From an uncultured Lachnospiraceae bacterium (GTDB taxonomy: Bacteria > Bacillota > Clostridia > Lachnospirales > Lachnospiraceae), in the NCBI GenBank assembly GCA_934438085.1, contig CAKSBC010000001.1:161997-225996 (forward strand): 64,000 bases of DNA, given 5' to 3'. A model generated the notes under the pieces. It saw only the letters and a list, made by a program, of their open reading frames with translations, did no database searches and was not told where the DNA came from. Positions 8,838-46,665 of the stretch are shown here, piece after piece. The translations under genes and the position numbers were made by a program. Position 1 is the first letter of the stretch. Each line of letters opens with the position of its first letter.

Positions 8838-8941
8838 GTAATAAACGCAGTTTCTTCGCTCTGCGAGCTTTCGAAACTGCTCGTTCATACATATTAATGT
8901 AATAAACGCAGTTTCTCCGTTCTTCGAACTCTCGAAACTGC
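8838..8941. repeat. Two tandem ~42-nt units, each a GCAGTTTC-N18-GAAACTGC hairpin (61-bp period)
   Basis: GTAATAAACGCAGTTTCT... occurs at 8838 and 8899, with hairpin stems at 8847-8880 and 8908-8941. In addition, CATTCGCAAT at the xth start codon (8799-8808) recurs at 8951-8960. Confidence 0.85.
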
Positions 8942-9060
8942 CTAAACAAACATTCGCAATTCGGACTGCGTCCTCTTGCTCATGTTCGTTTACAGTTAAA
9001 TACATTTGTCACCAAAAATAAATACATTTATTTTTGCTTCCAACTGTATTTCCCTATTTA

Positions 9061-9726
9061 TTACGTCATTTTATAAAGATCCTCCGCCAGGCTTTCGTCG
9101 TAATAGAGGACGTCTTTCTGGCTTAAGTAGAGTTCGCCTTTTTCGTTTTTTTCTATTATTTCTGCTTCGCAGTTATAGAGTACTTTCGGTTTGTCGAAGT
9201 ATTTAGGATCGTATGAAAATCTTCTAAGCATGCATCTTATTGCGCAGCCATGGCTCATTACGAGGATGTTTTTGTCCTGATAATCCGGTCTGCTGCTGAT
9301 GTCATCAAGGAAGGATGATGTTCTTTTTATTACATCATCTATGGTTTCTGCACCCTCAGGTATGAACTCAGGTTTTCCTTCTCTGAAGAACTGATGGTAC
9401 TGTGTTCTGTCTATTTCTCCCAATGCAGGATTACTTAATTTCCCTTCCCATACTCCGAAGTTAAGCTCCATAAGTCGGTCATCAAGCTTTGTGATAGCAC
9501 CCTTTTCAATGTAATGCTTATTCCTTGAAAGTATGAGTCCGGCTGTTTCCTGGGCTCTTACAAGCGGACTTGTATAGCACAGATCGATCGGTATGTCTGC
9601 CATTCCGTCTCCTGCCAATGCCGCTATCTTCATTCCATTATAATTAAGATGTATATCGGTATGCCCCTGCACTCGGCCTGCTCTGTTCCAATCGGTCTCT
9701 GAGTGACGCATCAGATAAATTCTCAT
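9061..9726 (-). CDS. Histidine phosphatase family protein (phosphoglycerate-mutase-like)
   Basis: The N-terminal MRIYLMRHSETDWN carries the RHG-type motif, and there is a later SHG motif. Confidence 0.85.
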   Translation of the reverse strand: MRIYLMRHSETDWNRAGRVQGHTDIHLNYNGMKIAALAGDGMADIPIDLCYTSPLVRAQETAGLILSRNKHYIEKGAITKLDDRLMELNFGVWEGKLSNPALGEIDRTQYHQFFREGKPEFIPEGAETIDDVIKRTSSFLDDISSRPDYQDKNILVMSHGCAIRCMLRRFSYDPKYFDKPKVLYNCEAEIIEKNEKGELYLSQKDVLYYDESLAEDLYKMT

Positions 9727-14596: not shown

Positions 14597-15163
14597 TCAA
14601 AAGGATTTTATATCAGAGTTCAATGCTTCCACAGCAAAGCTTTGGCTTGAAAGCTCATTTCCGGCGGCATCCATAACTTTAACCTTGCCCTTAAACACAG
14701 CATTCTTTGAAGGACCGCTTCCTGCAGTTCCTGCAGCTGAAAATGTCAACTCGGTAAGCTCTGCCTTTATCCCTTGAGTATAAGCTGAATCAGGTGCTAA
14801 AGCGATCATCTGCTCATCACTGCCGCTTCCAACGCTGATTACGATTTTGCCGTTTTTGTTTACAAACTTAGCCTTATTAAACCTCTCATCCTTATTTTTA
14901 TCATATGTAAATGTCAGGTTATCCAGATTGGTTCCATCAATATTGTAGGAATATCTGAGCTTATCCTGAATTGCTATAGTCAGTGTACTGCAAAGGATCT
15001 TGGACTCCGACACTGTAGTCTCACGCTTAAGCTCTCTTGAAGAAGCCTGCATGGCAGAGCAAACAAGAGCAAAGGTCATCAGACAAAAAATAAGTGTGAC
15101 CAGTAGCTCCGTAAGACTTATGCCCTTATTGCTTTTCAGTTTTTCAATTATTCTTTTTCTCAT
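14597..15163 (-). CDS. Pilin-like protein with a prepilin-type N-terminal cleavage/methylation signal
   Basis: Leader MRKRIIEKLKSNKG / ISLTELLVTLIF, with Gly at -1, Glu at +5 and a hydrophobic helix. Confidence 0.8.
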   Translation of the reverse strand: MRKRIIEKLKSNKGISLTELLVTLIFCLMTFALVCSAMQASSRELKRETTVSESKILCSTLTIAIQDKLRYSYNIDGTNLDNLTFTYDKNKDERFNKAKFVNKNGKIVISVGSGSDEQMIALAPDSAYTQGIKAELTELTFSAAGTAGSGPSKNAVFKGKVKVMDAAGNELSSQSFAVEALNSDIKSF

Positions 15164-15243
15164 CTTTTAGTTGAGTCCATCTGTGTTCAGTTTGTCCAAG
15201 TTCTATTTGCCTTAGTTCAGCTCGAATTACTACAATATCAAGC

Positions 15244-15663
15244 TTACTTTAATTCGTAATAGCAGAAATTATCCGTAACGTCAGAGGTTCCTCTTTTATG
15301 CTTTTCGATGCTTAAGCTTGCATCAGCACTGAACTTAGTCGCTGAGCTATCGACCTCATAAACACCGTCAGAATCGGAATCATTTTCAGCCCTTTGTATC
15401 GTAACTGAGGTATCTTTTTTTTGTGTGATACCTTCGTCCATATCTATCGCCGTCACCATGTCTTCTGCTTTTTTATTGATCTTTGCAGATGTAACGACAG
15501 AGCCTGAAAACACAACAAATACCAGTGACATTACAAGTACAGCTACCAATGTCTCTGTAATGGATTCACCGCATTTTGAACCAAGCTTCCTTCCTATAAA
15601 GCAAGCCTTATTTTTCCTGTTCATAATGATTATTCTTTTTTTCTCTCTGCTTAAATAATCCAT
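15244..15663 (-). CDS. Pilin-like protein with a prepilin-type signal; start possibly at 15624
   Basis: ...GSKCG / ESITETLVAVLVMSLVFVVF, with Gly at -1, Glu at +5 and a hydrophobic helix. Starting at the internal Met (15624) gives a 19-aa leader. Confidence 0.7.
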   Translation of the reverse strand: MDYLSREKKRIIIMNRKNKACFIGRKLGSKCGESITETLVAVLVMSLVFVVFSGSVVTSAKINKKAEDMVTAIDMDEGITQKKDTSVTIQRAENDSDSDGVYEVDSSATKFSADASLSIEKHKRGTSDVTDNFCYYELK

Positions 15664-15673
15664 TATCTGTCTG

Positions 15674-16456
15674 TTATGAAGCTCCTCTTAATATCTTTGC
15701 GTTTTTTCCGCTTATAAAGCTGCATTCTGTTGTAGTTATGGTTGCGGTATAGGTATCAGTACCCCCGTCAACCGCCTCCTTTGTTCTTTTTTCTGTCGTT
15801 TTTGTAACAGAACAATTACATGTAAAAGGAAGTGTGATGTTCATCTTATAGTTTTCACTTCCGGCACTTTTATTAAGTGACAGATCTACAGTCATATTTA
15901 TCTGAGTTGTTCCTATTTCGCCATCATTCTCACGAATACCCAAAAAGCCTGATCCGTTTGCATTTTCCACACCTGAAAGCCTTACTGTAACAAGGACGTC
16001 ATCAAGGACACCATCCGATGCAGCAGCATCTGCTTTAATAATGTAATTTATGCCCTTTGAGCCGCCGGTGCCGTTTGAGCCTCCGAGCGGAGCCGCTTTA
16101 TTCATATTGTCATGAAACCAGTCTATAAGCTCAGCCTTTAAAGGATTATCTCTGCCTGCTTTGGTATATTTATCCTTAAAATCTAAATTTATGGTTGAAT
16201 CTGACTTATCACTATCATCTATTTCCTTATAGTTAATGCTGATGCCAACCAGACATTCCTCCATTAGCTTTGCCGCTGAGCTCACAGTCAGATAATTCTG
16301 CTCTGCCTGCTGGTTACGCTTTACTCTTCCGATGTTTGACAATGCAGAATTTAGCATTATTACAGAAACTACGGTGACAACAATCAGTGCAAAGAGAGCC
16401 ATCGCAAGTGATGCCCCTCTTTGCTCCGATATTTTGTTTTTGATACATTTAATCAT
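15674..16456 (-). CDS. Pilin-like protein lacking Glu+5 (PilX/GspK-like minor pseudopilin)
   Basis: MIKCIKNKISEQRG / ASLAMALFALIVVTVVSV has a prepilin-like leader with Met instead of Glu at +5. It overlaps the end of the giant gene by 8 nt. Confidence 0.65.
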   Translation of the reverse strand: MIKCIKNKISEQRGASLAMALFALIVVTVVSVIMLNSALSNIGRVKRNQQAEQNYLTVSSAAKLMEECLVGISINYKEIDDSDKSDSTINLDFKDKYTKAGRDNPLKAELIDWFHDNMNKAAPLGGSNGTGGSKGINYIIKADAAASDGVLDDVLVTVRLSGVENANGSGFLGIRENDGEIGTTQINMTVDLSLNKSAGSENYKMNITLPFTCNCSVTKTTEKRTKEAVDGGTDTYTATITTTECSFISGKNAKILRGAS

Positions 16457-19400
16457 TCTCTGTACCGTATGTAATATCCTCGTCTGTAATCACTTCCGGA
16501 TCGATTATAGAACGCACTGAGTTACTGCCTTCATCAGACATTACTTCTATAGCTTCGTCTATAGTCTCTGACATAATGTCATTGTCAGCATTATCTATGC
16601 CTTCATTCATAGTATCAGCTGCATTGCTGTCTGCACCATTAAAGCTCTGTACAGATGGCCCTGAAGTACCGACATTATTATGGTAAATAACTCTTGCTTC
16701 GTTTGAAATGCTTCCGCCCGGGCCTGCCGGTCCTATACCTTCTCCATTCTCGGAGTTTGGCAAAGAACTCTCCGCTGAATTAGTATCTGCATCAATTGTA
16801 CTATCTTCGGCATTTTCTGCTGCAGCTAAGCTATCAGCATCAGCTGTATCTATTATGTCATTTGTCGCAATTGCGACAGCTTCTGCCCTTGCCATGCTGG
16901 CCGCAGACATTAATGCAAATATTTCATCCGCAGAAACATCGTATCTCGCATAAACCTTTGTCGGAACAGTATCACCGCTGTCCGTAATAAAGTGTCCTTC
17001 GGAATCGGTTATAGGCTCACCGCCGTCAGGCTCAGTCCAATATCCGCTGAATGTATCGATACCCACAGGTTCCTTGTGTGCCAGTGCATTTACTGCCGGA
17101 ACAGTTAATGTGTTATCTGTATAAAATGCTCCGTCAAGGTAACAAAGTGTACCTGCTTTTGCATAGCTTCCGTTAGCTCCGATTTTGTCATAAAACGTAA
17201 TTTCAGCACATTTCCATGCAGCAGAAGCCTTAACTGAAGATTTAAGCATTGCATCAGAAGTAAGTAACTCTCCGTTATCTAATACCCAGCCGGCAAAGCT
17301 TCTTCCTCTGTTTATCGAAGCATCATTTTTAACCATGCTTGTCCAATAATCAAGATTGGCCTTTGCTGTACTGTTATCATCTACTGCCTTAGCATAAGAA
17401 ACATTTACATTATGATTTCCTCCTGCATCAAGACGTTCATCATCAGCATAAAGCATTACACTTACGGACTGTGCTGCTCCTTCTGGACGTGTCATAACCT
17501 CAAGCTCAAGCATTTTGTATCGTGCATTGACCGGCTTGGTGTTCTTTAAGCTATCGCTATCCCAGCGAGGATATATATCCTTACTTGAAACAATCACTCT
17601 TGCCTCGCCTTCATTTCGTCCGGTAACCTTTAAAAAAATGCTAAGCTTCTTTCCGGTGCTGTCTGTTTCCTCTGAAAGCTCACATTGTACCTTATTCTTG
17701 GACTCAATATTCTGGTAACCAACAGTCCAGTTAGCTAATGTCGTTGGGATTTCATCACCGTTCTTATTTTTGGCTGTTATTACATATTCAACCGATTCTC
17801 CTCCATAAAGAGTGGCATTCTTAGGATCTCGCGCATTTATCTCCACAGACATTTCGGCTGTTACTGATATCTCAAGCTCTTTTGTATAATCGATTCCTTC
17901 TGAATTATAGCTTATGGTTAATGTCTCATAGCCTTCTGAAAGTCCCTGTACCTTAAGTGTATAATATCTCTTTCCCGGTTCCTTTACATCGGTCATTTGC
18001 ACAAAGCTGCATCTTACAGTATCAAAATTACCGCTTGAGGTTGATACACTTGGAGCAGCTGTCATATCAACAAGATTACCATCCTGATAATACTTAACAG
18101 CAATATCCTGCGTTCCGGTATCTGAAGTAAGCAAATCTATCTCCGCCGACTTGATATCAGTGAACAAGCCGCCGCTAAGTGGCCATGCACCGTAATGAAC
18201 ATAGACATTTTTCGCCTCGCCTGACATAGGGAAGTCTGCATCATAGAATGGATTTTCCTGAGTTACGATAGCCGGGAATGGGTAGTTCTCACCTTTAAGG
18301 AATTTATCAGCACCCGGGAAGCTGTACTTTCCGTCAATCCTTGCTCCGCCGTTTTCTGTAGTGGTTACATTCGCAAAGCCCGGTTCTCCGACCTTAAGGC
18401 TGTTTAACAGGTGACCGTTTTTCATATTATCATAGCTTAATGCCATCACATTCAGCAGATTTCCGTCAGGAATGGTAGTACCGTAGGCATTTAAGTATTG
18501 AATGTCATACTTTCCCTTATTTTCAAACTTAGTTGGTTTAATTACTATTGTTTCATCATTTGCATATTCACGATAATAATAGCAATTCTTAATTAATATC
18601 GTTTCTACATCAGCAGCACTGCTATCATTTAAATCTCCAACTGTAGCTATCGGTCTTACTACTTTGACATCGTCAGCAACCTTAGGCAGACTCATATATG
18701 TGTAGCTATTATATATTTCCGGCTGAGGTTTAATATATGATGAAAGATGTCCAATGCCATTCTCTAATGTTCCAAAATTTGTAAGCTTATCAAGTCCCTG
18801 TGCCTTGAACCATTCGCCTCCTACAATTCCGCCTATATATATATCTACATTTGAAGTTTCATCACTGCTGATACTTCCTCCACAGTAGCTTCCTGATATA
18901 TTTCCGGGGCATATACCAACCATGCCGCCAACGCATATAGCCTGATTCTCTTTTTTCTGATATATGCTTTTTATTACAATATCATTAACTGAGCTACAGT
19001 TAACTATATTCGTACCGCAGAAGCCTGCAAGTCCTCCTATATTGGCATTTCCTGGGCCTGCTTTGGTTCTATTGTTTTCTATAGTATAGCCTGCTGAAGC
19101 GCAGTTTTTCACAACACCCTGAGCTGCAAAGCCAACAAGACTGCCAAGACTGTACCAGTTAGTTCCGTCTGCATTGGCACTTATCTTATTATTAGAATCT
19201 GAATACAAGATAATATTCTGAAGATTTGCGCATACCGCAGTTCCAAAAAGTCCTGCAGTCTGGGACTTACTGTTAATACTTATATTCTGAATCTTATATG
19301 ATCTGCCGTCAAAATAACCGTTAAAATATGCTGTATATGGTTGTGAAAAGGTATCATATATCCAATCCTCAACTGTGTCTTTATTATCATAAAGACTTCC

Positions 19401-22400
19401 TATAGGAGTAAAAATATTACCTGATCCATTTGTATCGTGTGTTTGTGCCCAATAGAAATTATGAACATAATTACTATTATATCTAACTTCTTCATTATAA
19501 CCTGGATGAAAAGCAGCAAACCAAGATAGATATGTGTAGTGGTCTTCAGTTTCTCTTGATTTGTAACAGTTATCAACCCATTGCCATTCCCATTCACTTT
19601 TCCACCAATTCCAAACTTTTTTATATCCACCTATAATCGATTCATTTGTTTCAGAACCAATATCAGCTGACGTCACCTCAGTCGTTGCATTAAGCTTATC
19701 CCATCTCCAGTTTATGTTCTGCAGCTGTGAGGTAGATCTTATCTCAAATGGGAATCCATTTTCCTTTGATGGTTTGCCATCTGCACCATAGCCTGTTCCG
19801 TGTCCGAGCTTCGCCTTTGCTTCATCAGGGGTAGTAATTTCATCCGCACCAAGTAAGACCATGCTCTTTCCGAAGAATGGTGTGAAAATATATTGAATTT
19901 CCTTTGTTCCGTAATTAAGAGTACACGAAGCATAGGCTGAATCTCCGATAAGGAACATTCCGCCGTCATCTGCTTTCTGTCTGCTTGTATTTAGTGTTTC
20001 AGGCGTTACACCGCTTTCAGTAGTTCTGTAAAGCTCGAATTTATAGCTTCCGCCAAACTGCTTTTCAAATGCATTTTTAGCTGCACCTACACAAATGGAA
20101 TCTGTTGTTGCATCCTTAGCATTGACAAAGCGTGACTTATTCCCGAGATTTACATTATCCCAGTATGCTGAAGGACCTGAATCCGATGCATTTTCAGGCT
20201 TATAGTAAAATCCGTAGCCATAAGCAGTTATGACACCTCCGTCATCATGAGACTCACAAAGTGTAGAATACTCATTACCCTCGTCATCTATCATATAAAA
20301 ATGATATCCGTTGTTTGAGCCTTTTTCTTCATGTTCCCAATAGATAAAGCCCATTCTTCCGAAGCTTGAATCATACGCCCATTCTCCGTAATGCACTCTT
20401 GTTCCGTCGTTCTTAGTAACGACAGCAGGATATGGATATTTTACGGAATTATCATTATTGGTGCATGCATGATAAAATGAATCCTCAGCATTTCCAAAAG
20501 CAGTGCTTAAATCATTTTCCAAGGTATAGGTAGTAGTATCACTGACATCAATAAGTTCTATAAGCTGAGCGCTTGTAGCAGACTGTGCCGGAAGGTTTGA
20601 ATCTGTATCATAATTATATGGACGAACACTGTCTACATAGTAGTAGTTTCCTCCGTTAAGATACATGCATCTTTCCATGGTTCCGGTAATACCCTGACTG
20701 AATGCACTTATATTGCCGCTGCTTAAATTGCTGCTGGTATATGCAGCAGCACAGTAAGAGCCCTCTATCTTACCGTTGTTGATGCCGGCAAAGCCTCCGA
20801 GCTTAAATTCTCCGGAGGTATTCGAGGTTCCCGCATCTATATATGCGAGGCCGTAGCAGTCTATGATTTCTCCGCTTCTTGAATTATAAGCAGTAAAGCT
20901 TCCGGTGTAGGCATCGGAGGTTCCGTTTGAGAACACCTCAATAAGCGGAACATCTGCTGAGCATTTGCTTATTGTTCCTTCGTTATAGCCTACAAGTCCT
21001 CCGACATAGACATCTGAATTTCCGTATGCGTAACCGCTTATGCTATAGCTTGCTGCAGCACAGTTTGTCACTGTACTTGCACTGTCAATATATCCTGCAA
21101 GCATACCGAGATATGCTTTTTCACCGTTATTCTGTGCGGCTTTTATGTTAGTAATGCTGAACTTATCAGCACTGCTGTAATCGGCCGCTATGACGATATT
21201 TTCAAGCTTTCCTCCCTTTACAAGTCCGAAAAGTCCTGAATATAAGCTGTTACCAGTACTGTGTATGGAGAATCCGGTGATAATATGGCCTCTGCCGTTA
21301 TATCCGGATCTGAAGCTTTCATCCTCGCTGCTTCCGTCAGCTATAGAACTTTGCACTCTGTTTTTTCCGATATCAGTAAGGCTTGTATATCCCGGACTTG
21401 CGCTCGCCCAATTATAATTTTTATAGTTAATGTCAAGCTCCTGATAGAAGTTCCTTCCCTCTACATCACCGGTCTTATTGTAGGCATCGTAGAACTTACT
21501 GAGCAGATACAGCTGTCTTGCAGATCTTATATAAATTCTTTCGTCCGCCATAGGTATCAGCTGTGCTGCCGAATCATTTTCTGCCTTATTGACAGACTTT
21601 GCAAAGTGCGGATTGAAGAAGTAATAATCTGTAGTACTTCCGTTTACAACTGATATTCTCTTATAGAAATGATCTATTAAATATCCTGTATCTATGTCTC
21701 CGCTGCCGTCAGTCTTAAGTCCGGCATTCGTTATTGCATCAGGAAGCAACAGCAGTACGGTCTTATCGTTCCAGCCGTCAGTTGTTGTAAATGCAAGCTG
21801 GCTGGCCTCAACTGTAACCTTGGTAAGTGCGCTTCTGTCATAGGTATTTCCGTTAAATGTAATACTTAAAGGAGCAGTATCGCTATATGCATCGGCATCA
21901 TAAACAAGTGCATATCCATCCGATATGACACTTATATTGTTGTTTTCATTAACAACTGTATCCTTATACAGCGTATCTGAGCTATTGCCGTAGAATCCCC
22001 ATTTTTCATATTTTCCATCAGAATAGTTCTCGAAATAAACAAGCGCTCCTGATTTGAAGTCCTTGTCTGCCCAGTCTCCGTAATGAACAGTTATTTTTGA
22101 ATTGCTCTTTATATGCGGATATTCGTATACCTTAAGAGCAAGGCCGCTCTTTAAATTGTACGGTCTGCTGTTTTCTGCCTTGGTATCAAATTCAAATATG
22201 CTTTTAGCCTCTGCACAGTCGTTAAGTGCATTATTAAGCTCATTAAGAACTCCGTCTGTACCTGTGCTCTTGAGCTTAGCTGATGCTACAGCTACACCGC
22301 CCATATTTTTTTTGCTGTTATTACAGTAATAAACGTTTGTAAAATTAGGATAACTTGTAGCTACAGTACTGTACTGATGTTGATGTGCGCTTACGTTGTA

Positions 22401-24518
22401 GCTGCTGCCGGTATCAAATACTGTATAAGAGCCTATGATATCTGAAATCGTTGTAGCAGTCTCTCCTGAACCTACGAAGCCTGCAGCCATCTCTGTATCA
22501 TTTTCAAATATTGCAAAGCCGGCACTGTAGGAGCCTATTATCTTGCTTTTTGCGTTATCGCCTCCTGCCGTATATCCGATAAGACCGCCTATTCGTCTTC
22601 CTGAAATGTAGCAGTCTGCATATGAACCGTTAATAATAAATCTTCGTTTTACCCAGCCTATAAGTCCGCCTGCACCTTTACCGTCCGTGCTGGTAGCAAC
22701 GACCGGGTCAATACCGGCCCTTATAACTGTTGATGCAAAGCTGTTAATGATTTCAGTATTAACATTTGCAACCCCGACAAGGCCTCCTGAGCTGTTTTCT
22801 GATTTTATAAAGGCATAGCTTTCATCCTTACCGTCATAATCGGAGGTATTAAGATAGACCTTGCAGTTAGAAATGGTTACAGGCTTACCTTTTCCCTCCC
22901 AGGCATCACTGTCAGAACCCAACTTTGACGCTAATCCGCCGGCATTAAGGTTATTGCTGCCGTTGGCCTTTAGACCTGTAAGCGTTATGTTCTTAAGCTC
23001 GCTTCCGTAGAAAACGCCGAATAAACCTGCATTTACTGAATCATTCGACTTCGGATAGTTTCCTATATCTATACCGTTAATTATATAGTTAGCTCCGTCA
23101 TAGCTTTTTAAGCCCTTGTCAGTGCTTTCTATTGGTGAGAATTTTCTGTTTCCGTATATTTTCTTCCAGCTAAACTTTCCTTCATCGGTAAAATCAATTT
23201 TCTCTGTCTGAACAGCAGAAACAAAGCTGAGCTTTTTAACTCCGCTTTTTGTATTCGGAATAGCTTCACCGATATGTGATGTGGTTGCGTCAAGATTCTG
23301 CAAATGCCTTCCGCAGGAAATCTTTGCAGTTGCGTCCTTATTTGAGGTGTCTGTACCGTCTGCAAACAAGCTGTTGACAACCTTGACATCAGGCATAGGT
23401 GAATTAATATTGTCGGATTCGTTTGTGCCTGTGACCTTGAAGCTTATCTCAAGATCCTCACCCGGAATAAAATTGCCTGTTTTTGATCCCGGTACATAGC
23501 TTATAGTCTGCCCCTTATCCGCAGAGCTTTGCTGTACGCTCGGAGCCTTACCGGAGCAGAAATTAGTATAGAACGAAAGATCATTTTCCGTTCCTATAGT
23601 ATCCTCAGTTACGAGTCTGTCTATGATCAAGCTCTTTGTTCTCTTGGTATTTCCGCCCATTAAGCCAATAAGCTCATAGCTGCAAGAGCTTTCACTGGTC
23701 TTTCCTGTAATGGTTATATAGTAGTTGACCTTTTTATTAATAAGCTTTTGCGGAAGCTCAGTTACAAAGTTGAGCTTTAGCTGTTCAGAGTTCGCTCCGG
23801 ATAAAGCAGAACCGCTGTCCCAGGAGATATAGTTTTTAATATCCTCTGTGCTTGAACCTTCTGTAATGCTGAAATTACCGAAGTAATATCCGACTCTTGC
23901 ATCGGTATTGTTTATACGATTCGCCTTGCTCTGTCTTATGGCATCGGTATCCGTTGTTGAAATGCTGCTGCCGTCCGGTTCATCATAGAACTTGTCAGGT
24001 GTATGATCGTCGTCCTCGCTGTAGAATACACCGTATACATAACCGTTTTCAGGATTAAATTCTATGACCCAGTTGTTGTTATAAATTTCTTCACTGACAG
24101 CATTCTCAGGAAGAATAAGTCTCTTAAGCTCTGTATTGCTGTTTGAATCACTTTCGAAAATGTCAGTTCCGGTCGCTGCCTTTGTCCAATTCTTATCAGA
24201 TCTTACTATGGTAAGAGTCTCTCCGTTCTTCCAGGTACTGCCATTTGTGGTTCCGTCATCCCAGTCTCCCGGGATAGTATTTCTTTTGATGACATCACTA
24301 AAACGAGCTGTATCCCCTGAAGAATACAGCTCTGTCAGTCTGTTTTGAGCCGCAGTATAGATAGTCCGGGCAGTTGTGTCCAGCTTCATCTGTCTAATAC
24401 TCTTTATTTGACTGAATATTCCCCCGATAGAGATTGCTCCTATTATCGCAATGATAGCGATAACAATAAGAAGCTCTGCGAAGGAATAACCCTTGCGGGA
24501 TCTTAGTTTATTGATCAT
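16449..24518 (-). CDS. Giant (2,689 aa) modular type IV pilin-like adhesin
   Basis: The N-terminus MINKLRSRKG / YSFAELLIVIAIIAIIGAISIGG is a class III signal. The body has many G-[GA]-[LMF]-[VIAF]-G GLUG-like repeats (AGGLIGW, VGGLVGY, NIGGLAGF, VGGMVGI, SGLFGLV). Near the C-terminus there are Ig-like segments and F-x-G-W/Y Listeria-Bacteroides-type repeats (SFAGWVLDNG, FSGYWTEPDG). There is no LPXTG. Confidence 0.85.
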   Translation of the reverse strand: MINKLRSRKGYSFAELLIVIAIIAIIGAISIGGIFSQIKSIRQMKLDTTARTIYTAAQNRLTELYSSGDTARFSDVIKRNTIPGDWDDGTTNGSTWKNGETLTIVRSDKNWTKAATGTDIFESDSNSNTELKRLILPENAVSEEIYNNNWVIEFNPENGYVYGVFYSEDDDHTPDKFYDEPDGSSISTTDTDAIRQSKANRINNTDARVGYYFGNFSITEGSSTEDIKNYISWDSGSALSGANSEQLKLNFVTELPQKLINKKVNYYITITGKTSESSCSYELIGLMGGNTKRTKSLIIDRLVTEDTIGTENDLSFYTNFCSGKAPSVQQSSADKGQTISYVPGSKTGNFIPGEDLEISFKVTGTNESDNINSPMPDVKVVNSLFADGTDTSNKDATAKISCGRHLQNLDATTSHIGEAIPNTKSGVKKLSFVSAVQTEKIDFTDEGKFSWKKIYGNRKFSPIESTDKGLKSYDGANYIINGIDIGNYPKSNDSVNAGLFGVFYGSELKNITLTGLKANGSNNLNAGGLASKLGSDSDAWEGKGKPVTISNCKVYLNTSDYDGKDESYAFIKSENSSGGLVGVANVNTEIINSFASTVIRAGIDPVVATSTDGKGAGGLIGWVKRRFIINGSYADCYISGRRIGGLIGYTAGGDNAKSKIIGSYSAGFAIFENDTEMAAGFVGSGETATTISDIIGSYTVFDTGSSYNVSAHQHQYSTVATSYPNFTNVYYCNNSKKNMGGVAVASAKLKSTGTDGVLNELNNALNDCAEAKSIFEFDTKAENSRPYNLKSGLALKVYEYPHIKSNSKITVHYGDWADKDFKSGALVYFENYSDGKYEKWGFYGNSSDTLYKDTVVNENNNISVISDGYALVYDADAYSDTAPLSITFNGNTYDRSALTKVTVEASQLAFTTTDGWNDKTVLLLLPDAITNAGLKTDGSGDIDTGYLIDHFYKRISVVNGSTTDYYFFNPHFAKSVNKAENDSAAQLIPMADERIYIRSARQLYLLSKFYDAYNKTGDVEGRNFYQELDINYKNYNWASASPGYTSLTDIGKNRVQSSIADGSSEDESFRSGYNGRGHIITGFSIHSTGNSLYSGLFGLVKGGKLENIVIAADYSSADKFSITNIKAAQNNGEKAYLGMLAGYIDSASTVTNCAAASYSISGYAYGNSDVYVGGLVGYNEGTISKCSADVPLIEVFSNGTSDAYTGSFTAYNSRSGEIIDCYGLAYIDAGTSNTSGEFKLGGFAGINNGKIEGSYCAAAYTSSNLSSGNISAFSQGITGTMERCMYLNGGNYYYVDSVRPYNYDTDSNLPAQSATSAQLIELIDVSDTTTYTLENDLSTAFGNAEDSFYHACTNNDNSVKYPYPAVVTKNDGTRVHYGEWAYDSSFGRMGFIYWEHEEKGSNNGYHFYMIDDEGNEYSTLCESHDDGGVITAYGYGFYYKPENASDSGPSAYWDNVNLGNKSRFVNAKDATTDSICVGAAKNAFEKQFGGSYKFELYRTTESGVTPETLNTSRQKADDGGMFLIGDSAYASCTLNYGTKEIQYIFTPFFGKSMVLLGADEITTPDEAKAKLGHGTGYGADGKPSKENGFPFEIRSTSQLQNINWRWDKLNATTEVTSADIGSETNESIIGGYKKVWNWWKSEWEWQWVDNCYKSRETEDHYTYLSWFAAFHPGYNEEVRYNSNYVHNFYWAQTHDTNGSGNIFTPIGSLYDNKDTVEDWIYDTFSQPYTAYFNGYFDGRSYKIQNISINSKSQTAGLFGTAVCANLQNIILYSDSNNKISANADGTNWYSLGSLVGFAAQGVVKNCASAGYTIENNRTKAGPGNANIGGLAGFCGTNIVNCSSVNDIVIKSIYQKKENQAICVGGMVGICPGNISGSYCGGSISSDETSNVDIYIGGIVGGEWFKAQGLDKLTNFGTLENGIGHLSSYIKPQPEIYNSYTYMSLPKVADDVKVVRPIATVGDLNDSSAADVETILIKNCYYYREYANDETIVIKPTKFENKGKYDIQYLNAYGTTIPDGNLLNVMALSYDNMKNGHLLNSLKVGEPGFANVTTTENGGARIDGKYSFPGADKFLKGENYPFPAIVTQENPFYDADFPMSGEAKNVYVHYGAWPLSGGLFTDIKSAEIDLLTSDTGTQDIAVKYYQDGNLVDMTAAPSVSTSSGNFDTVRCSFVQMTDVKEPGKRYYTLKVQGLSEGYETLTISYNSEGIDYTKELEISVTAEMSVEINARDPKNATLYGGESVEYVITAKNKNGDEIPTTLANWTVGYQNIESKNKVQCELSEETDSTGKKLSIFLKVTGRNEGEARVIVSSKDIYPRWDSDSLKNTKPVNARYKMLELEVMTRPEGAAQSVSVMLYADDERLDAGGNHNVNVSYAKAVDDNSTAKANLDYWTSMVKNDASINRGRSFAGWVLDNGELLTSDAMLKSSVKASAAWKCAEITFYDKIGANGSYAKAGTLCYLDGAFYTDNTLTVPAVNALAHKEPVGIDTFSGYWTEPDGGEPITDSEGHFITDSGDTVPTKVYARYDVSADEIFALMSAASMARAEAVAIATNDIIDTADADSLAAAENAEDSTIDADTNSAESSLPNSENGEGIGPAGPGGSISNEARVIYHNNVGTSGPSVQSFNGADSNAADTMNEGIDNADNDIMSETIDEAIEVMSDEGSNSVRSIIDPEVITDEDITYGTEND

Positions 24519-24523
24519 CTTGT

Positions 24524-25162
24524 TTATTTACTTACTTCTCCTGCCAGACTCTCTAATACCGAGGTCTGATCATCTGCAGTTTTAGCATTGCTGCTGCCCG
24601 GATTCTTCCTGGCTTTCAGCGCTGCCTCCTGTTTACTTGTTACATACTCATAGTTTACAAGTGAAAGCGTAGAGCTCCACTGAGTATTCTGCTCATCACA
24701 GCTTGTGTTGAAGCCTGTTATGAGATATGTGTTTTTGCTGTCCTCTATGAGCTGTGCAATATATTCCGCAGCTTCTTTGGACTGTGTCTTGTAATTAATG
24801 GTAATTTCTCTGCGCATAACGCTGTCGGTGATAGTCTCGTCTCCGAAGCTTATGTCGAACTCATCTGCCATATCCATATAGACATTAAGTTCCTGAAGCA
24901 ACACCTTATTATTGCTGTATGTGGCAAGTGACTGAGGATCACCGCCTGCTTTTTCGTATATTACATCAAGCTCGCTCTGCATTTTGTTCATCTGCATAGC
25001 CTTAGCTGATGCTACGTCTATCTCGCTCTGCAGATCAGCTCTCTGATTGGCAAGATTTAATGTCTCACTTGCAACCGGTCCCTGAACGACAAAATAATAT
25101 GCCGCAAGTATGATCAGAATTCCAAGCAGTGCCAGCTCTCTTATAGATATTATTCTGTTCAT
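24524..25162 (-). CDS. pilO: Type IV pilus assembly protein PilO-like
   Basis: One N-terminal TM segment, then a coiled coil and a small globular domain. Its position directly after pilM-pilN and the 4-nt overlap with pilN support the call. The call rests on architecture and context. Confidence 0.6.
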   Translation of the reverse strand: MNRIISIRELALLGILIILAAYYFVVQGPVASETLNLANQRADLQSEIDVASAKAMQMNKMQSELDVIYEKAGGDPQSLATYSNNKVLLQELNVYMDMADEFDISFGDETITDSVMRREITINYKTQSKEAAEYIAQLIEDSKNTYLITGFNTSCDEQNTQWSSTLSLVNYEYVTSKQEAALKARKNPGSSNAKTADDQTSVLESLAGEVSK

Positions 25163-26130
25163 TGTCCCGCTCCCTGTAATGCTGCCATGCCTTCCTCAAG
25201 TGTTGCAAAGCCCTGAGGTGCGCTGTCCGGGTTTGATCCTATGATAACTGTATCTCCGCCGATATTCTGTACCTCGACATTGCTGCCGTTTGTTCCTTTG
25301 TTTCCGCCTGACTGCTGCAAAGAGCCGGCATTCTGTGATGCATTAGCATTGCTGCCGCTTCCTACGCTGTTATTGACTGCGCTTAAGGAACCGCCGTACA
25401 CGGCCTCAGCCTTTTTGGTATTGGCATCCTTATCGGCATTATCCTTAGCTTCTCTTGCTGCCTTGACCGCATTGGTATATTCTTCATATCTTGCGGCTCT
25501 TTCCTCTTCGCTAAGGCTGCTTACTGAGCCTGCTGCCAATACATCATCATCGTCTTCTTCCTTGACTGTAAAGATGATATAGCCTTCGACATCGATATTG
25601 TTAGTTCCCTTGGCTGTTGAAACCATGATCTCATCTATGTTGACCATGCTGTTTAATCTGTCCTGAATAGTATCGATATCCTCTAATGAAGACATGTCAA
25701 CTATAACACCGACCTGATTTCCTTCGATGCTGATGCTTGTAATGCTTCCGATGCCGTCCGTGCTTTCATCAAGCATATCAAATATACGCTCTCTGCCTAC
25801 AAGACCTGCCTCATCCTCTGATAAGTAGCTTGTAGTAAATCTCCTGTATTCCTCTAAGACTTCGTCATAATCAGCGATTTTCTCGTCAAGCTGCTCAAGC
25901 TGTGTCTTAAGTGCAGAATTCTGCTGCTGCAGCTGTGCTAACTTTGCAAGTCTGTCAACAACTCCGAGTCTGTATACTGCAAATACCACTATAATAAGAA
26001 ATACTGCAAGCGGAAGCACTACCTGAATGCTGTTTCCGTCCTTTTCTCTGACATAGAGGTTAATGTTTCTCTTTGACGGAAGCTTCTGTATGTTCTCTTC
26101 TTTTCTGAACTTTTCAAAAAATTTATTCAT
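25159..26130 (-). CDS. pilN: Type IV pilus assembly protein PilN-like with a low-complexity C-terminal extension
   Basis: Short cytoplasmic N-terminus with an INLY motif (PilM-binding type), one TM segment, a coiled coil, then an S/G/N/A-rich tail. It overlaps pilM by 8 nt. Confidence 0.6.
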   Translation of the reverse strand: MNKFFEKFRKEENIQKLPSKRNINLYVREKDGNSIQVVLPLAVFLIIVVFAVYRLGVVDRLAKLAQLQQQNSALKTQLEQLDEKIADYDEVLEEYRRFTTSYLSEDEAGLVGRERIFDMLDESTDGIGSITSISIEGNQVGVIVDMSSLEDIDTIQDRLNSMVNIDEIMVSTAKGTNNIDVEGYIIFTVKEEDDDDVLAAGSVSSLSEEERAARYEEYTNAVKAAREAKDNADKDANTKKAEAVYGGSLSAVNNSVGSGSNANASQNAGSLQQSGGNKGTNGSNVEVQNIGGDTVIIGSNPDSAPQGFATLEEGMAALQGAGQ

Positions 26131-27121
26131 CAGCGCTCACCGCCCCTATAGCCAGCACACAGCGTGCCGCAAGCTCATCATCCTCAGGTTTGCCCGGCAT
26201 CCAGTCCTCAATGCTTCTTTGCTTAAAGCCGATATAATCGAGAGACTGATCGATCTTATTTTCTATCCATTTACTGCTTCCGGTCCATGTCAGCTTATTA
26301 AGCTCTGAATCAGGATTCTCATATCTAAAGAAGTTGATAGTTTTTGTTATCTCAAGGCCGAGTCTGTCATATACAGAACGGCATCTGTCATTATCCAGAA
26401 CATTTTCATAGTTTGATGCTCTGTAGCTTGCTGCAAGGAACGGATCTATGCCATATATCTCTGCAATGATGCTGTCTATCTGCTCACAGCCTATATCAAT
26501 GACCTTAAATGCAGAAAGCTCCCCGTCCTTTATAATGCCGAGTATCGTGGAATTCATGCCTATGTTGCAGATGCATTCTTCCTTATCAAGCTTAGCTCCG
26601 TCCTTAACCGCTCTTCTTGCAATATTAAGGAGAGCCATCTCCGTCGGTATCGCTTCCTTAAGCTTAAGGCCTGATTTCTTCAGAACGGCGGCATAGTTAT
26701 CAAGTGTTTCCTTCTGTGCCGCAGCAGCCATAAGCTCCATCGTCACCGGATCACCGTTCTCATCAAGCTCTATATTTCTTACAGCATAGTCAAAATTATA
26801 TCTGAAGCTGTCACTTCCGACATAGTCCTTAAATTCATAAGGAAGATTAAGTCTTAACTGCTGATCAGACATGGCCGGCATTGAAATGATCCTAAAATAT
26901 GCCGTACTTAACGGAAGCACAAGAGCACAGGCGCGGCCTGTAAAATGCCCCCTGCGTTTGATATCCTTTAAAAATGATGAAAATGTCTCCTGTGATACTA
27001 TCTGATCATTCTTTACGAGATTCTCCGGCATGCGCTCTGAATACATGCGAAGTCCCTTTCCGTCAAACTGGGAAAGGCAGATCTCATTACTGTCAAACTG
27101 TATACCTATCAAATTCTTCAT
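26123..27121 (-). CDS. pilM: Type IV pilus assembly ATPase-fold protein PilM
   Basis: Actin/FtsA-like fold signature regions (IGIQFD..., NIGMNSTILGIIKDGE, IDIGCEQID) and the right length and position for PilM. Confidence 0.75.
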   Translation of the reverse strand: MKNLIGIQFDSNEICLSQFDGKGLRMYSERMPENLVKNDQIVSQETFSSFLKDIKRRGHFTGRACALVLPLSTAYFRIISMPAMSDQQLRLNLPYEFKDYVGSDSFRYNFDYAVRNIELDENGDPVTMELMAAAAQKETLDNYAAVLKKSGLKLKEAIPTEMALLNIARRAVKDGAKLDKEECICNIGMNSTILGIIKDGELSAFKVIDIGCEQIDSIIAEIYGIDPFLAASYRASNYENVLDNDRCRSVYDRLGLEITKTINFFRYENPDSELNKLTWTGSSKWIENKIDQSLDYIGFKQRSIEDWMPGKPEDDELAARCVLAIGAVSADE

Positions 27122-27160
27122 CAGTTCACCCGATTTTTGTTTATTAATATCACTGTCAGA

Positions 27161-27955
27161 TTAAATAAACAGTGAAAGATACATATTTATTATCGGCTCT
27201 CCTATAAGTGCCGTGATCCATGCTGCTATGGCAATGGACGGTCCGAACGGAAATGCCTTGTTTGTTTTATTTTTACTGTTATAAAATGCTGCAAATATAA
27301 GTCCCGTAAAGCATGCTATTATCAGTAAAAGCAGTGTCTTAAGCGCTCCGAAGTGAAGCCCCAGCACCGCTATAAGCTTAATGTCTCCGCCTCCCATAGC
27401 TGTGCGTTTAAGTATCACCTCCATAATAAGTACAACTATAAGTAAAGGTACTGAAACAGCTAAAAAGCCTGTCAGCATTTCCTTTAAAACTGCCGTTCCT
27501 TCTAAAAGTCTCAAAAGTGATGCGGCGGCCATACCTATCAGCATACCGTCAGGTATCTCCATTATATCGATATCTACAAGCGATACAGTAAATAAAAGGC
27601 TGCCTACAAGTATAAAGCGCAGTGTATCAATAGTAAAGCCAAATCTTAATACGATACTTAAGTAAAGACACATGCAAATAAGCTCTGTCAGTGGATATCT
27701 TTTTGGTATTGATGCTCCGCAGTAACGGCAGCGCCCCTTTAAAAATAGCCAGCTGAAAAGCGGTACAAGATCTGTAGCCCTTAGAACATGTCCGCATTCC
27801 GGACAATGGCTCCTTCCCTTAGCAATACTCTCATTATTAGCGACTCGCCACGCCCATGCATTTAAGAAGCTTCCCATGCAAAGACCTATGACGCAGGTGA
27901 TAAATATAAGATATAATGCTGCGCCAATGGAAAAATCAAAAATATACAATTTCAT
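27161..27955 (-). CDS. pilD: Prepilin peptidase (A24 family)
   Basis: Zinc-ribbon-like CPECGHVL...RCRYCGASIPKRYPLTEL, plus catalytic Asp regions VDIDIMEIPDG and GGGDIKL. The start is set at MKLYIF, because the longer TTG-initiated frame runs through a terminator. Confidence 0.9.
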   Translation of the reverse strand: MKLYIFDFSIGAALYLIFITCVIGLCMGSFLNAWAWRVANNESIAKGRSHCPECGHVLRATDLVPLFSWLFLKGRCRYCGASIPKRYPLTELICMCLYLSIVLRFGFTIDTLRFILVGSLLFTVSLVDIDIMEIPDGMLIGMAAASLLRLLEGTAVLKEMLTGFLAVSVPLLIVVLIMEVILKRTAMGGGDIKLIAVLGLHFGALKTLLLLIIACFTGLIFAAFYNSKNKTNKAFPFGPSIAIAAWITALIGEPIINMYLSLFI

Positions 27956-27961
27956 TACTTT

Positions 27962-27972
27962 ATTATAACAAA
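27962..27972 (-). promoter_or_regulatory. Extended -10 promoter (TGTTATAAT) immediately upstream of pilD
   Basis: Minus strand reads TTTGTTATAATAAAGTAATG. The TATAAT ends 6 nt before the pilD ATG and there is no Shine-Dalgarno sequence in between. Confidence 0.35.
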
Positions 27973-27992
27973 TAAAAGCCGCAAATGCGGCT
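27966..27992 (-). terminator. Rho-independent terminator of the Na/Pi transporter gene
   Basis: Minus strand reads AGCCGCATTTGCGGCT followed by TTTTATTTGTT. Confidence 0.75.
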
Positions 27993-28033
27993 CTTATCAT
28001 ACACAAATTAAAAAAATTTGCAGCTAAACCTCA

Positions 28034-45486: not shown

Positions 45487-45503
45487 TTTTATTTCCTCTT
45501 TTA

Positions 45504-46505: not shown

Positions 46506-46623
46506 AACAAAGCTCCCCCATAATTAAAATGTTAATGTTACATTATTCAGACCTTAACGCCTTGTCTTTAACTGTCATTAGTATAATTCACTTATAAATC
46601 AGGTGCTACAGACAAAGATTTAT

Positions 46624-46656: not shown

Positions 46657-46665
46657 GTCTGATGT

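Follow-up and report, generated by a model that had tools for sequence, protein, structure and literature searches.

Gene content of the locus

The window, i.e., the whole 64,000-nucleotide stretch of an uncultured Lachnospiraceae bacterium analyzed here, carries eight closely packed minus-strand genes, pilD-pilM-pilN-pilO-G-K-x-y, at positions 14597-27955 (Table 1). This set agrees in gene identity and position with that listed in an earlier note on the sequence. The pilD-pilM gap is 39 nt; elsewhere, neighboring genes overlap by as much as 8 nt, as pilM and pilN do, or are separated by up to 80 nt. The eight genes probably constitute one operon. All eight open reading frames (ORFs) are intact, including one of 8 kb, and all are under purifying selection, with dN/dS values (unsaturated dS) between 0.05 and 0.31: 0.23 for pilD (versus related locus L004), 0.07 for pilM, 0.06 to 0.08 for the pilN-like gene, 0.08 to 0.15 for the pilO-like gene, 0.14 to 0.23 for G, 0.19 for K, 0.31 for x, and 0.09 for y. 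The G+C content of the cassette is that of its surroundings, and no mobility genes or repeats border it. An integrase fragment is found ~13 kb from the cassette.

Table 1. Features of the pilus gene cassette and its flanks, in window positions
Feature	Position	Strand	Basis or remark
pilD, prepilin peptidase	27161..27955	-	264 aa from ATG at 27955; longest ORF extends to 28006
pilM, cytoplasmic actin-like alignment protein	26123..27121	-	PilM_2, TIGR01175
pilN-like bitopic membrane protein, 323 aa	25159..26130	-	Position, architecture, family profile
pilO-like (GspM/PilO family) bitopic membrane protein, 212 aa	24524..25162	-	T2SSM matches in family
G, giant modular pilin, 2,689 aa	16449..24518	-	Class III signal peptide, N_methyl, GLUG
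K, 260-aa pilin-like protein without Glu5	15674..16456	-	QRG/ASLAMALFALIVV; homology
x, small minor pilin, 139 aa (126 aa from internal Met at 15624)	15244..15663	-	KCG/ESITE
y, minor pilin, 188 aa	14597..15163	-	NKG/ISLTE
Choline-binding-repeat (cell-wall-binding) protein, 630 aa	12680..14572	-	Choline_bind_3, Choline_bind_1
Terminator-like hairpin between Na/Pi-cotransporter gene and pilD	27971..27998	-	12-bp stem, GC core, U-rich tail

PilD combines the Pfam domains A24_N_bact (5.2e-31) and Peptidase_A24 (2.2e-13) and contains the pair of motifs with the catalytic Asp residues, DIDIMEIP and GGGDIKL; its start at 27955 agrees with the length of homologues ahead of the GSFLN motif. PilM, for which 121 homologues were found, matched PilM_2 (2.8e-14) and TIGR01175 (9.2e-22). 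The PilN and PilO of the window itself score below family thresholds, their identity being given by family-level profiles and gene position. The PilN-like protein has no Pfam match of its own; it consists of an N-terminal KRNINLY motif, a transmembrane segment, a coiled coil, and a long low-complexity C-terminal tail. Its family profile has Myxococcus PilN (3jc8; E=0.066) as the top PDB match, and 2 of 27 family members match Pfam PilN weakly. In the PilO-like family, Pfam T2SSM is matched by 17 of 26 members (best E=4.6e-9), and the profile aligns over nearly its full length with Myxococcus PilO (3jc8; E=5.1e-5).

Pfam scans of every window ORF of ≥110 aa yielded no T2SSE or T2SSF domain, family HMMs for motor, platform, and major pilin had no match among window ORFs of ≥50 aa, and a six-frame scan of the window for class III signal peptides returned no further pilin candidate. 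The three approaches confirm the claimed lack of PilB/PilT, PilC, and a short major pilin. Nor do pilB, pilC, and pilA lie just outside the window, a placement at odds with the idea of a motor encoded elsewhere: contigs sharing the end genes of the window contain no pil genes in ~8 kb past each end. Altogether, the ~80 kb surrounding the cassette are free of PilB/PilT/PilC and of a short pilin.

A conserved three-block cluster that has been split

Comparison with about 100 related loci, 81 of which were scored for pilB/pilC beside pilD-pilM-pilN-pilO, unveiled a conserved 12-gene pilus cluster made up of three blocks: G-K-x-y, pilB-pilT-pilC-pilA, and pilD-pilM-pilN-pilO. pilB and/or pilC adjoin pilD-pilM-pilN-pilO in 51 of the 81 loci, and additional unsplit cases were found alongside. 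G-K-x-y is more variable in its placement, with four or more different locations or orientations. Since the usual order in the family is ...pilA-pilD-pilM-pilN-pilO, the proximity of pilD to pilM is ancestral and not the anomaly that it was initially taken for; the derived trait is loss of the pilB(-pilT)-pilC-pilA block upstream of pilD. The order that the earlier note gives for clostridial loci, taken here as those of Clostridium perfringens and Clostridioides difficile, with pilB/pilC/pilA between pilD and pilM, differs from that of this family in a comparison by gene order alone.

The unsplit 12-gene clusters of Clostridia and Coriobacteriia, represented by Anaerotignum propionicum DFI.7.94 (L055), Clostridium sp. 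MCC353 (L065), and an Oscillospiraceae MAG (L014), share with this locus the protein families, the order within each block, pilD directly before pilM, and giant pilins (1,760 to 2,820 aa). Their three blocks are contiguous, whereas here the motor block is elsewhere and without pilT, which most unsplit relatives keep, and the cassette has flanks of its own. The split form (DMNO-GK(xy), no BTCA) is retained in the clade of the window (L004 to L008; PilM identity, 98 to 57%) and also in the relative L100, with other flanking genes. This arrangement is conserved in at least five species-level lineages, and the genes flanking the cassette vary between related species.

The motor and major pilin are encoded at a second locus

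The missing motor is accounted for by a second locus, found in the same gut Lachnospiraceae species, that carries pilB-pilC-pilA. In MAG SUG126, Ddl-pilB-pilC-pilA resides on a separate contig from the cassette. The PilC of this genome (MCI5792531.1) belongs to PilC cluster P0276, to which it is 97.5% identical, and is encoded on the same 47-kb contig as Ddl (MCI5792529.1). In that assembly, contig 20 carries the cassette (MCI5792562-569), the accessions of the motor genes being ~30 below those of the cassette genes. The wider context of the second locus is SecDF-Tgt-YajC-Ddl-pilB-pilC-pilA, followed by unrelated genes, in a sequence from a sample that also contains a contig of the window species. 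A sister species (PilC 82.6% identical) likewise has an orphan pilC-pilA. The prediction that motor and major pilin are encoded elsewhere was thereby borne out.

The second-locus PilB matches TIGR02538 (1.8e-167) and exceeds the cutoff of a c-di-GMP-binding motif model; it is an extension ATPase with an MshEN-type c-di-GMP-binding N terminus. PilA (154 aa; REG/FTLAELLIVVAIIAVL) matches the family major-pilin HMM at 3e-38. Both PilC, the platform protein, and PilA, the major pilin, are in the same family as their counterparts of the unsplit 12-gene clusters, indicating one system that was split rather than a borrowed foreign motor. The proposal of a self-contained cassette that borrows its motor therefore stands as to the distant motor locus but not as to its foreign origin. 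PilC (44 to 47% identity) and the cassette PilM (42 to 45%) are similarly diverged from the nearest unsplit relatives, which fits co-inheritance. The two loci may be co-expressed, but a riboswitch or any further known RNA element common to both was not detected. A further T2SSE/T2SSF system elsewhere in the genome may also interact with the cassette.

On these grounds, the region quite probably encodes the peptidase, the PilM-PilN-PilO alignment subcomplex, and the putative tip pilins of an otherwise ordinary Gram-positive (monoderm) type IVa pilus, one system divided between two chromosomal loci. Gram-negative bacteria, too, usually spread the genes for their type IVa pili over several loci (PMC10191384). 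The local absence of the motor block and the disruption of G into two ORFs in a related MAG (L007) could alternatively portray the cassette as a decaying, non-functional remnant left by deletion of the motor genes. However, eight intact ORFs, one of them very long, the low dN/dS values, persistence in several species-level lineages, and the complementary pilB-pilC-pilA locus bring this reading close to refuted. It is also highly improbable that the cassette is a plug-in tip-and-alignment unit, moving horizontally and using any host T4P motor. Differing flanks between related species, the several positions of the G-K-x-y block in different genomes, and the integrase fragment are what such a unit would leave, but G+C content matches the surroundings, mobility genes and repeats are missing at the borders, the second-locus PilC/PilA are of the same pilus family, PilC and PilM have diverged to a similar extent, and the orphan motor locus is conserved in the sister species.

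The pilins G, K, x, and y as a putative tip complex

Strong prepilin N termini are confined to G and y in the window, with K and x being recognized via homology. The AlphaFold model of K (pLDDT 78.5) has a 64-residue N-terminal helix and a beta sheet in a pilin-like lollipop shape, and no significant structural neighbor was found in the PDB. The N terminus of K resembles NCBIfam GspK weakly (E=0.0026; 17 bits versus a cutoff of 130). By sequence, K belongs to neither the GspK nor the PilX family, and its fold is not that of GspK either. The x family alignment features a near-invariant G/E-T-L-x-E motif, and its profile matched pilin N termini in the PDB (E=3e-4). In the y family, G-1 and E+5 are invariant in the alignment, and the profile matched type IV pilins in the PDB (E=5.5e-6).

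The case made from four pilin-like genes, one of them lacking Glu5, held across the family: this residue is absent from all 40 K homologues scored and kept in 15/17 G, 31/33 x, and 29/34 y homologues. G-K-x-y relocates as one block across genomes, nearly always with G as its first gene, although G is missing beside K-x-y in a few relatives such as L017, L018, and L027. The consistent lack of Glu5 in K and the movement of the block as a unit make a role of G-K-x-y as priming/tip complex plausible from sequence, with K as the candidate cap. In the established model, a complex of minor pilins at the tip, with a subunit lacking Glu5 as its cap, initiates filament assembly (PMC10191384).

The giant pilin G

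The 2,689-residue G, with a mass of about 290 kDa, is the sole unusual component of this pilus system. It begins with a class III signal peptide, RKG/YSFAELLIVIAIIAIIGAI (RKG/YSFAE), matches N_methyl (8.6e-4) and GLUG in Pfam, and scores 16.4 bits against TIGR02532 (cutoff, 16.3). Three GLUG-motif regions (about aa 500 to 700, 1100 to 1260, and 1780 to 1920) are each followed by a YPxP...HYGxW motif (at 812, 1376, and 2108), and the C-terminal end is an acidic tail. G is colinear with orthologues of 2,619 to 2,823 aa, has an allelic mosaic region, and is strongly conserved only in its first 100 or so residues. Its N-terminal 450 aa retrieved 478 cluster representatives at E≤1e-10, and among the best 150 of these, 103 are of ≥1,500 aa. 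The largest modular pilin of an InterPro survey from 2021 has 860 aa (PMC8179133), a size that G far exceeds. Modular pilins are probably shown at the pilus tip (PMC8179133, PMC9934059), and G would probably be an adhesin at that position.

This size, together with the restriction of strong conservation to the N terminus and the relatives with K-x-y alone, would also suit a surface adhesin that PilD processes and that stays anchored in the membrane, never entering a filament. Its pilin-like N terminus would then be a sorting/anchoring signal only, and K, x, and y the true priming complex. This is unlikely: Glu5, which serves filament docking and not membrane anchoring (PMC10191384), is retained in most G homologues, G nearly always comes first in the G-K-x-y block and travels along with it, and the modular pilins studied so far enter filaments via their pilin module (PMC8179133).

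In the preferred model of a split type IVa pilus, PilD would cut the leader peptides off all five pilins, and a priming complex of G, K, x, and y would form in the membrane on a PilC/PilMNO base, with the Glu5-less K topmost. PilB would then insert PilA subunits below this complex, and their addition would drive it outward across the cell wall, bringing the GLUG-repeat portion of G to the pilus tip; G would probably be the adhesin there. A 2,689-aa subunit is not known to be carried through the cell wall at a pilus tip in any system.

Relationship to known pili and secretion systems

Pseudomonas type IVa genes are arranged as a minor-pilin operon, pilMNOPQ, and pilA/pilBCD. The Gram-negative models (Pseudomonas aeruginosa and Neisseria meningitidis) likewise encode one machine at several loci, keep minor-pilin and alignment genes apart from those for ATPase, platform, and major pilin, and have four core minor pilins, one of them without Glu5 (PMC10191384). 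In contrast to these models, pilD here goes with pilMNO instead of pilBC, PilY1 is missing, and the giant pilin replaces the large tip protein; secretin, PilP, and PilW are lacking because only one membrane is present. Streptococcus sanguinis, too, has a type IVa pilus and only one membrane; for its PilA-PilB-PilC tip complex, the proposal is that bulky modules grafted on pilin N termini are exposed at the tip for adhesion along with a small partner pilin (PMC8179133, PMC9934059). All S. sanguinis pilus genes lie in one cluster, not in two loci, and its modular pilins are of ~50 kDa with vWA or lectin modules, whereas G carries GLUG-type repeats. No sequence similarity of the pilins described here to the S. 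sanguinis minor pilins was detected. The C. perfringens and C. difficile loci also bring together pilD, pilB, pilC, pilM, pilN, and several genes for pilin-like products (PMC3244431); the pilus genes of C. perfringens form more than one set.

GspH-I-J-K of type II secretion are four contiguous pilin-like genes as well, with the Glu5-less one as the proposed fiber cap. The K model, however, lacks the alpha-helical insertion domain of GspK, and PilM/N/O without secretin stand here in place of GspL/M/C. Downstream of y, after 24 nt and no terminator, begins the choline-binding-repeat gene (Choline_bind_3, 2e-24; Choline_bind_1, 2.5e-20), which follows y in a second strain (L105) too and may be co-transcribed with it in this species. 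L100 has VanZ and RmuC after y instead, and the choline-binding-repeat gene is outside the conserved cassette. The retention of this cell-wall-binding gene in both strains, the four minor pilins with a Glu5-less member, and the absence of pilT from either locus would be compatible with a Gram-positive type II secretion-like pseudopilus, a short non-retractile piston, in place of a long adhesive pilus, working with PilB/PilC/PilA to push folded proteins across the cell wall, of which the downstream product could be one cargo. Pilus gene-dependent secretion has been proposed in C. perfringens (bioRxiv 10.1101/2024.11.04.621531). We regard this alternative as improbable, given that L100 lacks the downstream gene, that the GLUG-repeat G with its mosaic region resembles a surface-exposed adhesin rather than a piston component, that both PilM/N/O and PilB of the MshEN type point to a type IVa pilus, and that most close relatives retain pilT. 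For the split type IVa pilus itself, retraction is uncertain, since neither locus has the pilT that most unsplit relatives possess.

Upstream of pilD, a 78-nt spacer has a folding energy of -21.2 kcal/mol (z=-2.8). The terminator-like hairpin is followed by an extended -10-like element, TGTTATAAT, at 27962-27970, where we infer a putative promoter for the cassette before pilD.

Genes and boundaries of the cassette

The pilus cassette comprises eight tightly packed genes (pilD, pilM, pilN-like, pilO-like and four pilin genes, G, K, x and y), separated by very short spacers or overlapping. The inventory, the coordinates and the statement on Glu5 (the glutamate at +5 after the prepilin cleavage site) made in the earlier note were all correct. 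PilD clearly belongs to the A24 prepilin peptidases, with A24_N_bact (5.2e-31) and Peptidase_A24 (2.2e-13) matches above the Pfam cutoffs and both catalytic Asp motifs (DIDIMEIP and GGGDIKL), and PilM is a clear PilM_2 protein (53 bits versus a cutoff of 27). The PilN-like and PilO-like proteins have no significant family match of their own in Pfam or NCBIfam, nor do K, x and y; the identities of these five rest on family-level profiles from related loci, built for the first two from ~26 orthologues each. The PilO-like profile has PilO (3jc8) as its top PDB match (E=5e-5), and 17 of the 26 family members match Pfam T2SSM, which identifies the protein as a probable PilO at the level of the family. 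PilN is the tentative assignment for the 323-aa protein, based on an INL motif, membrane topology, gene position and a weak top PDB match of the profile to PilN (3jc8; E=0.066).

Properties of the cassette genes, in order from pilD to y (slash, prepilin cleavage site)
Gene	Product (aa)	Junction with next gene	N-terminus	dN/dS
pilD		39-nt gap		0.23
pilM		8-nt overlap		0.07
pilN-like	323	4-nt overlap		0.06-0.08
pilO-like	212	5-nt gap		0.08-0.15
G	2,689	8-nt overlap	RKG/YSFAE	0.14-0.23
K	260	10-nt gap	QRG/ASLAM	0.19
x		80-nt gap	KCG/ESITE	0.31
y			NKG/ISLTE	0.09

The species behind the window is an uncultured gut member of the Lachnospiraceae: the PilM of the window shares 98% identity with that of SUG126, a metagenome-assembled genome (MAG) of that species (JALELZ010000020.1), and its exact proteins recur on an NCBI contig as well as in several metagenomes from ENA and Logan. 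Substitution rates between the window and two other strains (L004 and L105; dS 0.05-0.28) demonstrate that the cassette is kept by selection and is no remnant. The idea of a pseudogenised remnant was dropped on the dN/dS values of all eight genes; decay conflicts both with that selection and with the complementary locus described below, and is scarcely credible.

On its upstream side the cassette is flanked by genes for a phosphate-type two-component system and an Na/Pi cotransporter; the downstream neighbours encode a choline-binding-repeat protein and an ABC transporter for amino acids. The choline-binding-repeat (cell-wall-binding) gene follows y without an intervening terminator and may be co-transcribed with the cassette; it is kept after y in a second strain and not in a related species. 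The spacer ahead of pilD contains a strong terminator-like hairpin, recognised by reading and folding the sequence, and directly after it TGTTATAAT, an extended -10-like motif. If this motif were used as a promoter, the leader of the pilD mRNA would, speculatively, be nearly nil. A consensus promoter/terminator scan returned counts at chance level and missed the hairpin.

Coordinates of features in the window and, where stated, in related loci
Feature	Position	Strand	Remark
Pilus cassette	14597 to ~28000	minus	eight genes
Spacer ahead of pilD	27956-28033	minus	
Terminator-like hairpin	27971-27998	minus	within the spacer
TGTTATAAT		minus	ends 6 nt before the pilD ATG
Variable stretch of G	18200-19700	minus	residues ~1600-2100
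Choline-binding-repeat gene	12680-14572	minus	630 aa; starts 24 nt past y
Clostridiales-1 RNA	8900-9063	minus	Rfam, 70 bits, E=3e-13
Phage-type integrase fragments	778-1323 and just past the window start	minus	181 aa and 72 aa, adjacent
PLP-dependent enzyme and flanking paralogues	44491-47738	minus	
Three tRNA genes	48935-49216		
PilB, locus L107	8239-9954		571 aa
Split giant pilin gene, locus L007	3146-10863		ORFs of 1,983 and 560 aa

A second locus encodes the motor, platform and major pilin

Pfam searches of all ORFs of 110 aa or longer found neither T2SSE (PilB/PilT) nor T2SSF (PilC) in the 64-kb window, and when ORFs down to 50 aa were searched with family HMMs built from related loci, no additional gene for a pilin or motor came up. 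A six-frame scan of the window for class III signal peptides returned only G and y, and no short major pilin with such a peptide. The local absence of a PilB/PilT ATPase, PilC and a major pilin, noticed at first reading, was thereby confirmed. Location of pilB/pilC just past the window on the same transcript was also dropped: contigs that carry the outermost genes of the window reach ~8 kb further on each side, into a capsule locus at one end and housekeeping genes at the other.

We queried a large protein collection with PilC of the nearest relative with an unsplit cluster (L038) and screened the matching clusters for proteins of SUG126, where the cassette spans MCI5792562 (PilD) to MCI5792569 (y). 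The cluster of representative P0276 includes SUG126 MCI5792531.1 (97.5% identical to P0276), which is annotated as a "type II secretion system F family protein" and lies on a 47-kb contig. The contig of P0276 comes from sample ERZ28614876, where the window species also has a contig, and reads SecDF-Tgt-YajC-Ddl-pilB-pilC(403 aa)-pilA(154 aa), after which come unrelated genes; pilT, pilD, pilMNO and minor pilins are absent from the locus. Since the Ddl of SUG126 (MCI5792529.1) shares the 47-kb contig with its PilC, the order Ddl(529)-PilB(530, inferred)-PilC(531) holds in SUG126. In a sister species (PilC identity 82.6%), pilC-pilA precedes HipA and other unrelated genes. The PilC groups P0225, P0208 and P0290, which lacked a partner among the retrieved loci and were considered as orphan motors, all turned out on context look-up to belong to ordinary unsplit clusters.

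PilB of the second locus matches the type IV-A model TIGR02538 (1.8e-167) and Pfam MshEN and T2SSE. Its N-terminal MshE-type c-di-GMP-binding motif exceeds the NCBIfam cutoff (51 bits versus 38), which suggests that pilus extension may be under c-di-GMP control. PilC carries T2SSF_N and T2SSF. PilA reads REG/FTLAELLIVVAIIAVL, with a canonical signal (REG/FTLAE), and matches N_methyl, TIGR02532 (26.3 bits versus a cutoff of 16.3) and the major-pilin HMM of the family (3e-38). Rfam searches of the window and both motor loci found no c-di-GMP or other riboswitch near any pil gene, and hence no shared RNA regulator that links the loci. PilT is absent from both the window and the pilB-pilC-pilA locus.

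The cassette and the second locus are separated by more than ~44 kb in one direction and ~22 kb in the other, and they complement each other exactly, as anticipated by the earlier proposal that motor and major pilin are encoded elsewhere. With peptidase, PilM, PilO, PilB, PilC and major pilin all identified, and PilN weakly so, the whole system is a type IVa pilus of the single-membrane kind. Because its genes are split over two loci, the motor-less appearance of the cassette is ordinary and does not indicate a new kind of machine. The puzzle of the missing motor is thus solved in a largely ordinary way, and what remains of interest is the family of giant pilins, together with the portable block of four pilins.

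Three-block architecture of the pilus family

Searching species-representative genomes with a PilM profile gave 80 loci, each taken with 10-kb flanks; their ORFs were called and then classified by iterated HMMs. The family consists of twelve genes in three blocks: G-K-x-y (GKxy), pilB-pilT-pilC-pilA (BTCA) and pilD-pilM-pilN-pilO (DMNO). This three-block map describes a pilus system that occurs widely among Clostridia and Coriobacteriia of guts and digesters, mostly uncultured. The unsplit order is GKxy-BTCA-DMNO in L014, L015, L019, L051, L055, L062, L066, L067 and L076, BTCA-DMNO-GKxy in L022, L038, L064 and L065, and BTCA-DMNO followed by an inverted yxKG in L011, L016, L020 and L052, while the tip block is inverted and upstream in L054 and, with G only, in L042, L045 and L072. 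Later look-ups added further unsplit clusters, with G genes of 1,462 to 2,703 aa. In most unsplit relatives pilT lies between pilB and pilC, and pilD directly ahead of pilM is the rule, which makes the comparison initially drawn with clostridial loci that carry pilB/pilC/pilA between pilD and pilM inapplicable here.

The split itself recurs. The whole clade of the window (L004, L005, L006 and L008; PilM identity 98, 70, 64 and 57%) shows DMNO-GK(xy) without motor genes in the visible 5-9 kb upstream; an Eisenbergiella MAG (L061) is also split, independently, and several Coriobacteriia have DMNO with no motor nearby. In L100 (K 46% identical), VanZ, RmuC and RuvA genes follow y, so that the neighbours of the cassette differ and its content stays the same. 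Described Gram-positive model loci are clustered. Type IVa pilus genes of Gram-negatives are, as standard, spread over several loci (PMC10191384). Given that practice and the recurrence of the split in this family, the arrangement of the window is a minor organisational variant.

G-K-x-y has been re-placed repeatedly relative to the motor and is fully unlinked from it in several lineages, including that of the window. As the four genes stay together while their placement varies, they behave as a unit. The alternative that the cassette is a mobile plug-in is very unlikely: base composition speaks against it, mobility genes are lacking, and PilC and PilM are similarly diverged from their unsplit relatives.

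Three loci (L017, L021 and L023) lack pilT and have pilC directly after pilB, and the visible downstream part of L017 holds K-x-y and no giant pilin; pilT and G are thus both dispensable in parts of the family. In one related MAG (L007) the giant pilin gene is split, which reflects either a frameshift/pseudogene or an assembly error.

The giant pilin G

The cleavage motif of G is followed by a 21-residue hydrophobic tract; the protein scores 16.4 bits with TIGR02532 (cutoff 16.3) and slightly below the cutoff with N_methyl. Past the pilin module it extends for ~2,500 residues. These comprise three GLUG-motif regions, with a YPxP...HYGxW motif after each of them, and an acidic tail. A BLAST self-comparison of G detected no repeats, so that the three regions are recognisable by short motifs only. 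AlphaFold modelling of residues 1-300 from the single sequence gave a mean pLDDT of 35 and was confident only in the N-terminal helix. From its sequence, G is predicted to be a modular type IV pilin, combining a class III signal peptide, a pilin module and extra modules.

G is colinear with its orthologues across the clade, the first 100 residues being best conserved. Its N-terminal 450 aa matched 478 cluster representatives at E<=1e-10; among the best 150 of these (P0427-P0576), 103 reach 1,500 aa or more and 13 reach 3,000 aa or more (maximum 3,447 aa), and the prepilin motif is recognisable in 87 of the 103. The most extreme case in a 2021 survey of modular pilins had 860 aa (PMC8179133), and the longest members of the G family are several times that size. 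Phrase searches of the searchable literature returned no description of giant or very large pilins.

Between strains of the species, G is 90-98% identical except for a stretch of ~500 residues at 60-73% (dS up to 1.3), which covers the third GLUG region and looks like a recombined mosaic allele.

A four-pilin block with one Glu5-less member

The four pilin genes are contiguous, and K alone lacks Glu5. This distinction, already drawn in the earlier note for the window, extends to the family: none of 40 K homologues has Glu at +5, where Leu, Met, Phe or Ile is usual, and the residue is kept at 85-94% in the other three (G, 15/17; x, 31/33; y, 29/34) and in 54 of 58 major pilins. An alternative in which G is processed by PilD and serves as an anchor that is not polymerised is improbable, as its conserved Glu5 favours docking into a filament.

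An alpha-helical insertion is typical of GspK. The AlphaFold model of K (19-sequence alignment, pLDDT 78.5) starts with an N-terminal helix of 64 residues that leads into a beta sheet, and would thus have the general pilin shape without that insertion. The N-terminus of K matches NCBIfam GspK weakly (E=0.0026; 17.3 bits versus a cutoff of 130). Its profile matched nothing in the PDB, and Foldseek comparison of its model with the PDB gave no match below E=0.1, the best (0.15) being meaningless; the x and y profiles match just the generic N-terminal helices of solved pilins. Neither sequence nor fold identified the subunits as homologues of GspK/PilX, GspI, GspJ or GspH. The G-K-x-y block would work like the GspHIJK and PilHIJK core minor-pilin sets but is not a member of them by sequence or fold. 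It behaves as an evolutionary unit that includes a Glu5-less member, and fits the priming/tip-complex model beyond the usual model organisms. K varies unusually strongly between strains (85-90% identity), where PilM is 97-99% identical.

Proposed assembly and tip display

In the general model, a Glu5-less subunit caps the tip complex that starts assembly (PMC10191384), and tip display has been proposed for the modular pilins of Streptococcus sanguinis (PMC8179133; PMC9934059). By analogy, PilD would process the five pilins, and G, K, x and y would form a priming complex on a PilC/PilMNO base, with K topmost. PilB, possibly under c-di-GMP control, would polymerise PilA beneath this complex, which would thereby reach the tip and expose the bulk of G as an adhesin. 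Constant linkage of the four genes, which also change place jointly, lends indirect support to such a complex. A secretion-type pseudopilus would instead accommodate the lack of a visible pilT and the cell-wall-binding protein encoded 24 nt past y; L100, however, does not keep that gene, and G resembles an exposed, variable adhesin, so that we consider this unlikely.

The sizes of the G family, the repeated repositioning and unlinking of the block and the mosaic segment of G together point, tentatively, to G-K-x-y as a tip module of type IV pili in Gram-positives that is portable and has a mega-adhesin as its first subunit, a reading that we hold possible and short of probable. If pilins of 1,500-3,400 residues ride pilus tips, the modular-pilin idea would extend to very large adhesins, and the giant pilins would become candidate factors in the attachment of gut Lachnospiraceae to host or substrate. 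Were the mega-adhesin reading true, pilus tips of gut Clostridia would show very large, fast-evolving and exchangeable adhesins, whose expression could be controlled apart from the filament.

Other features of the window

An Rfam Clostridiales-1 RNA match lies between a histidine phosphatase gene and a gene of the endonuclease/exonuclease/phosphatase family. The two phage-type integrase fragments adjoin a VanZ-like gene, on the margin of a locus for capsule synthesis, and look like a degraded integrase. Elsewhere, a PLP-dependent enzyme gene sits between two paralogous ornithine cyclodeaminase/mu-crystallin genes, beside a divergent LysR regulator and three tRNA genes.
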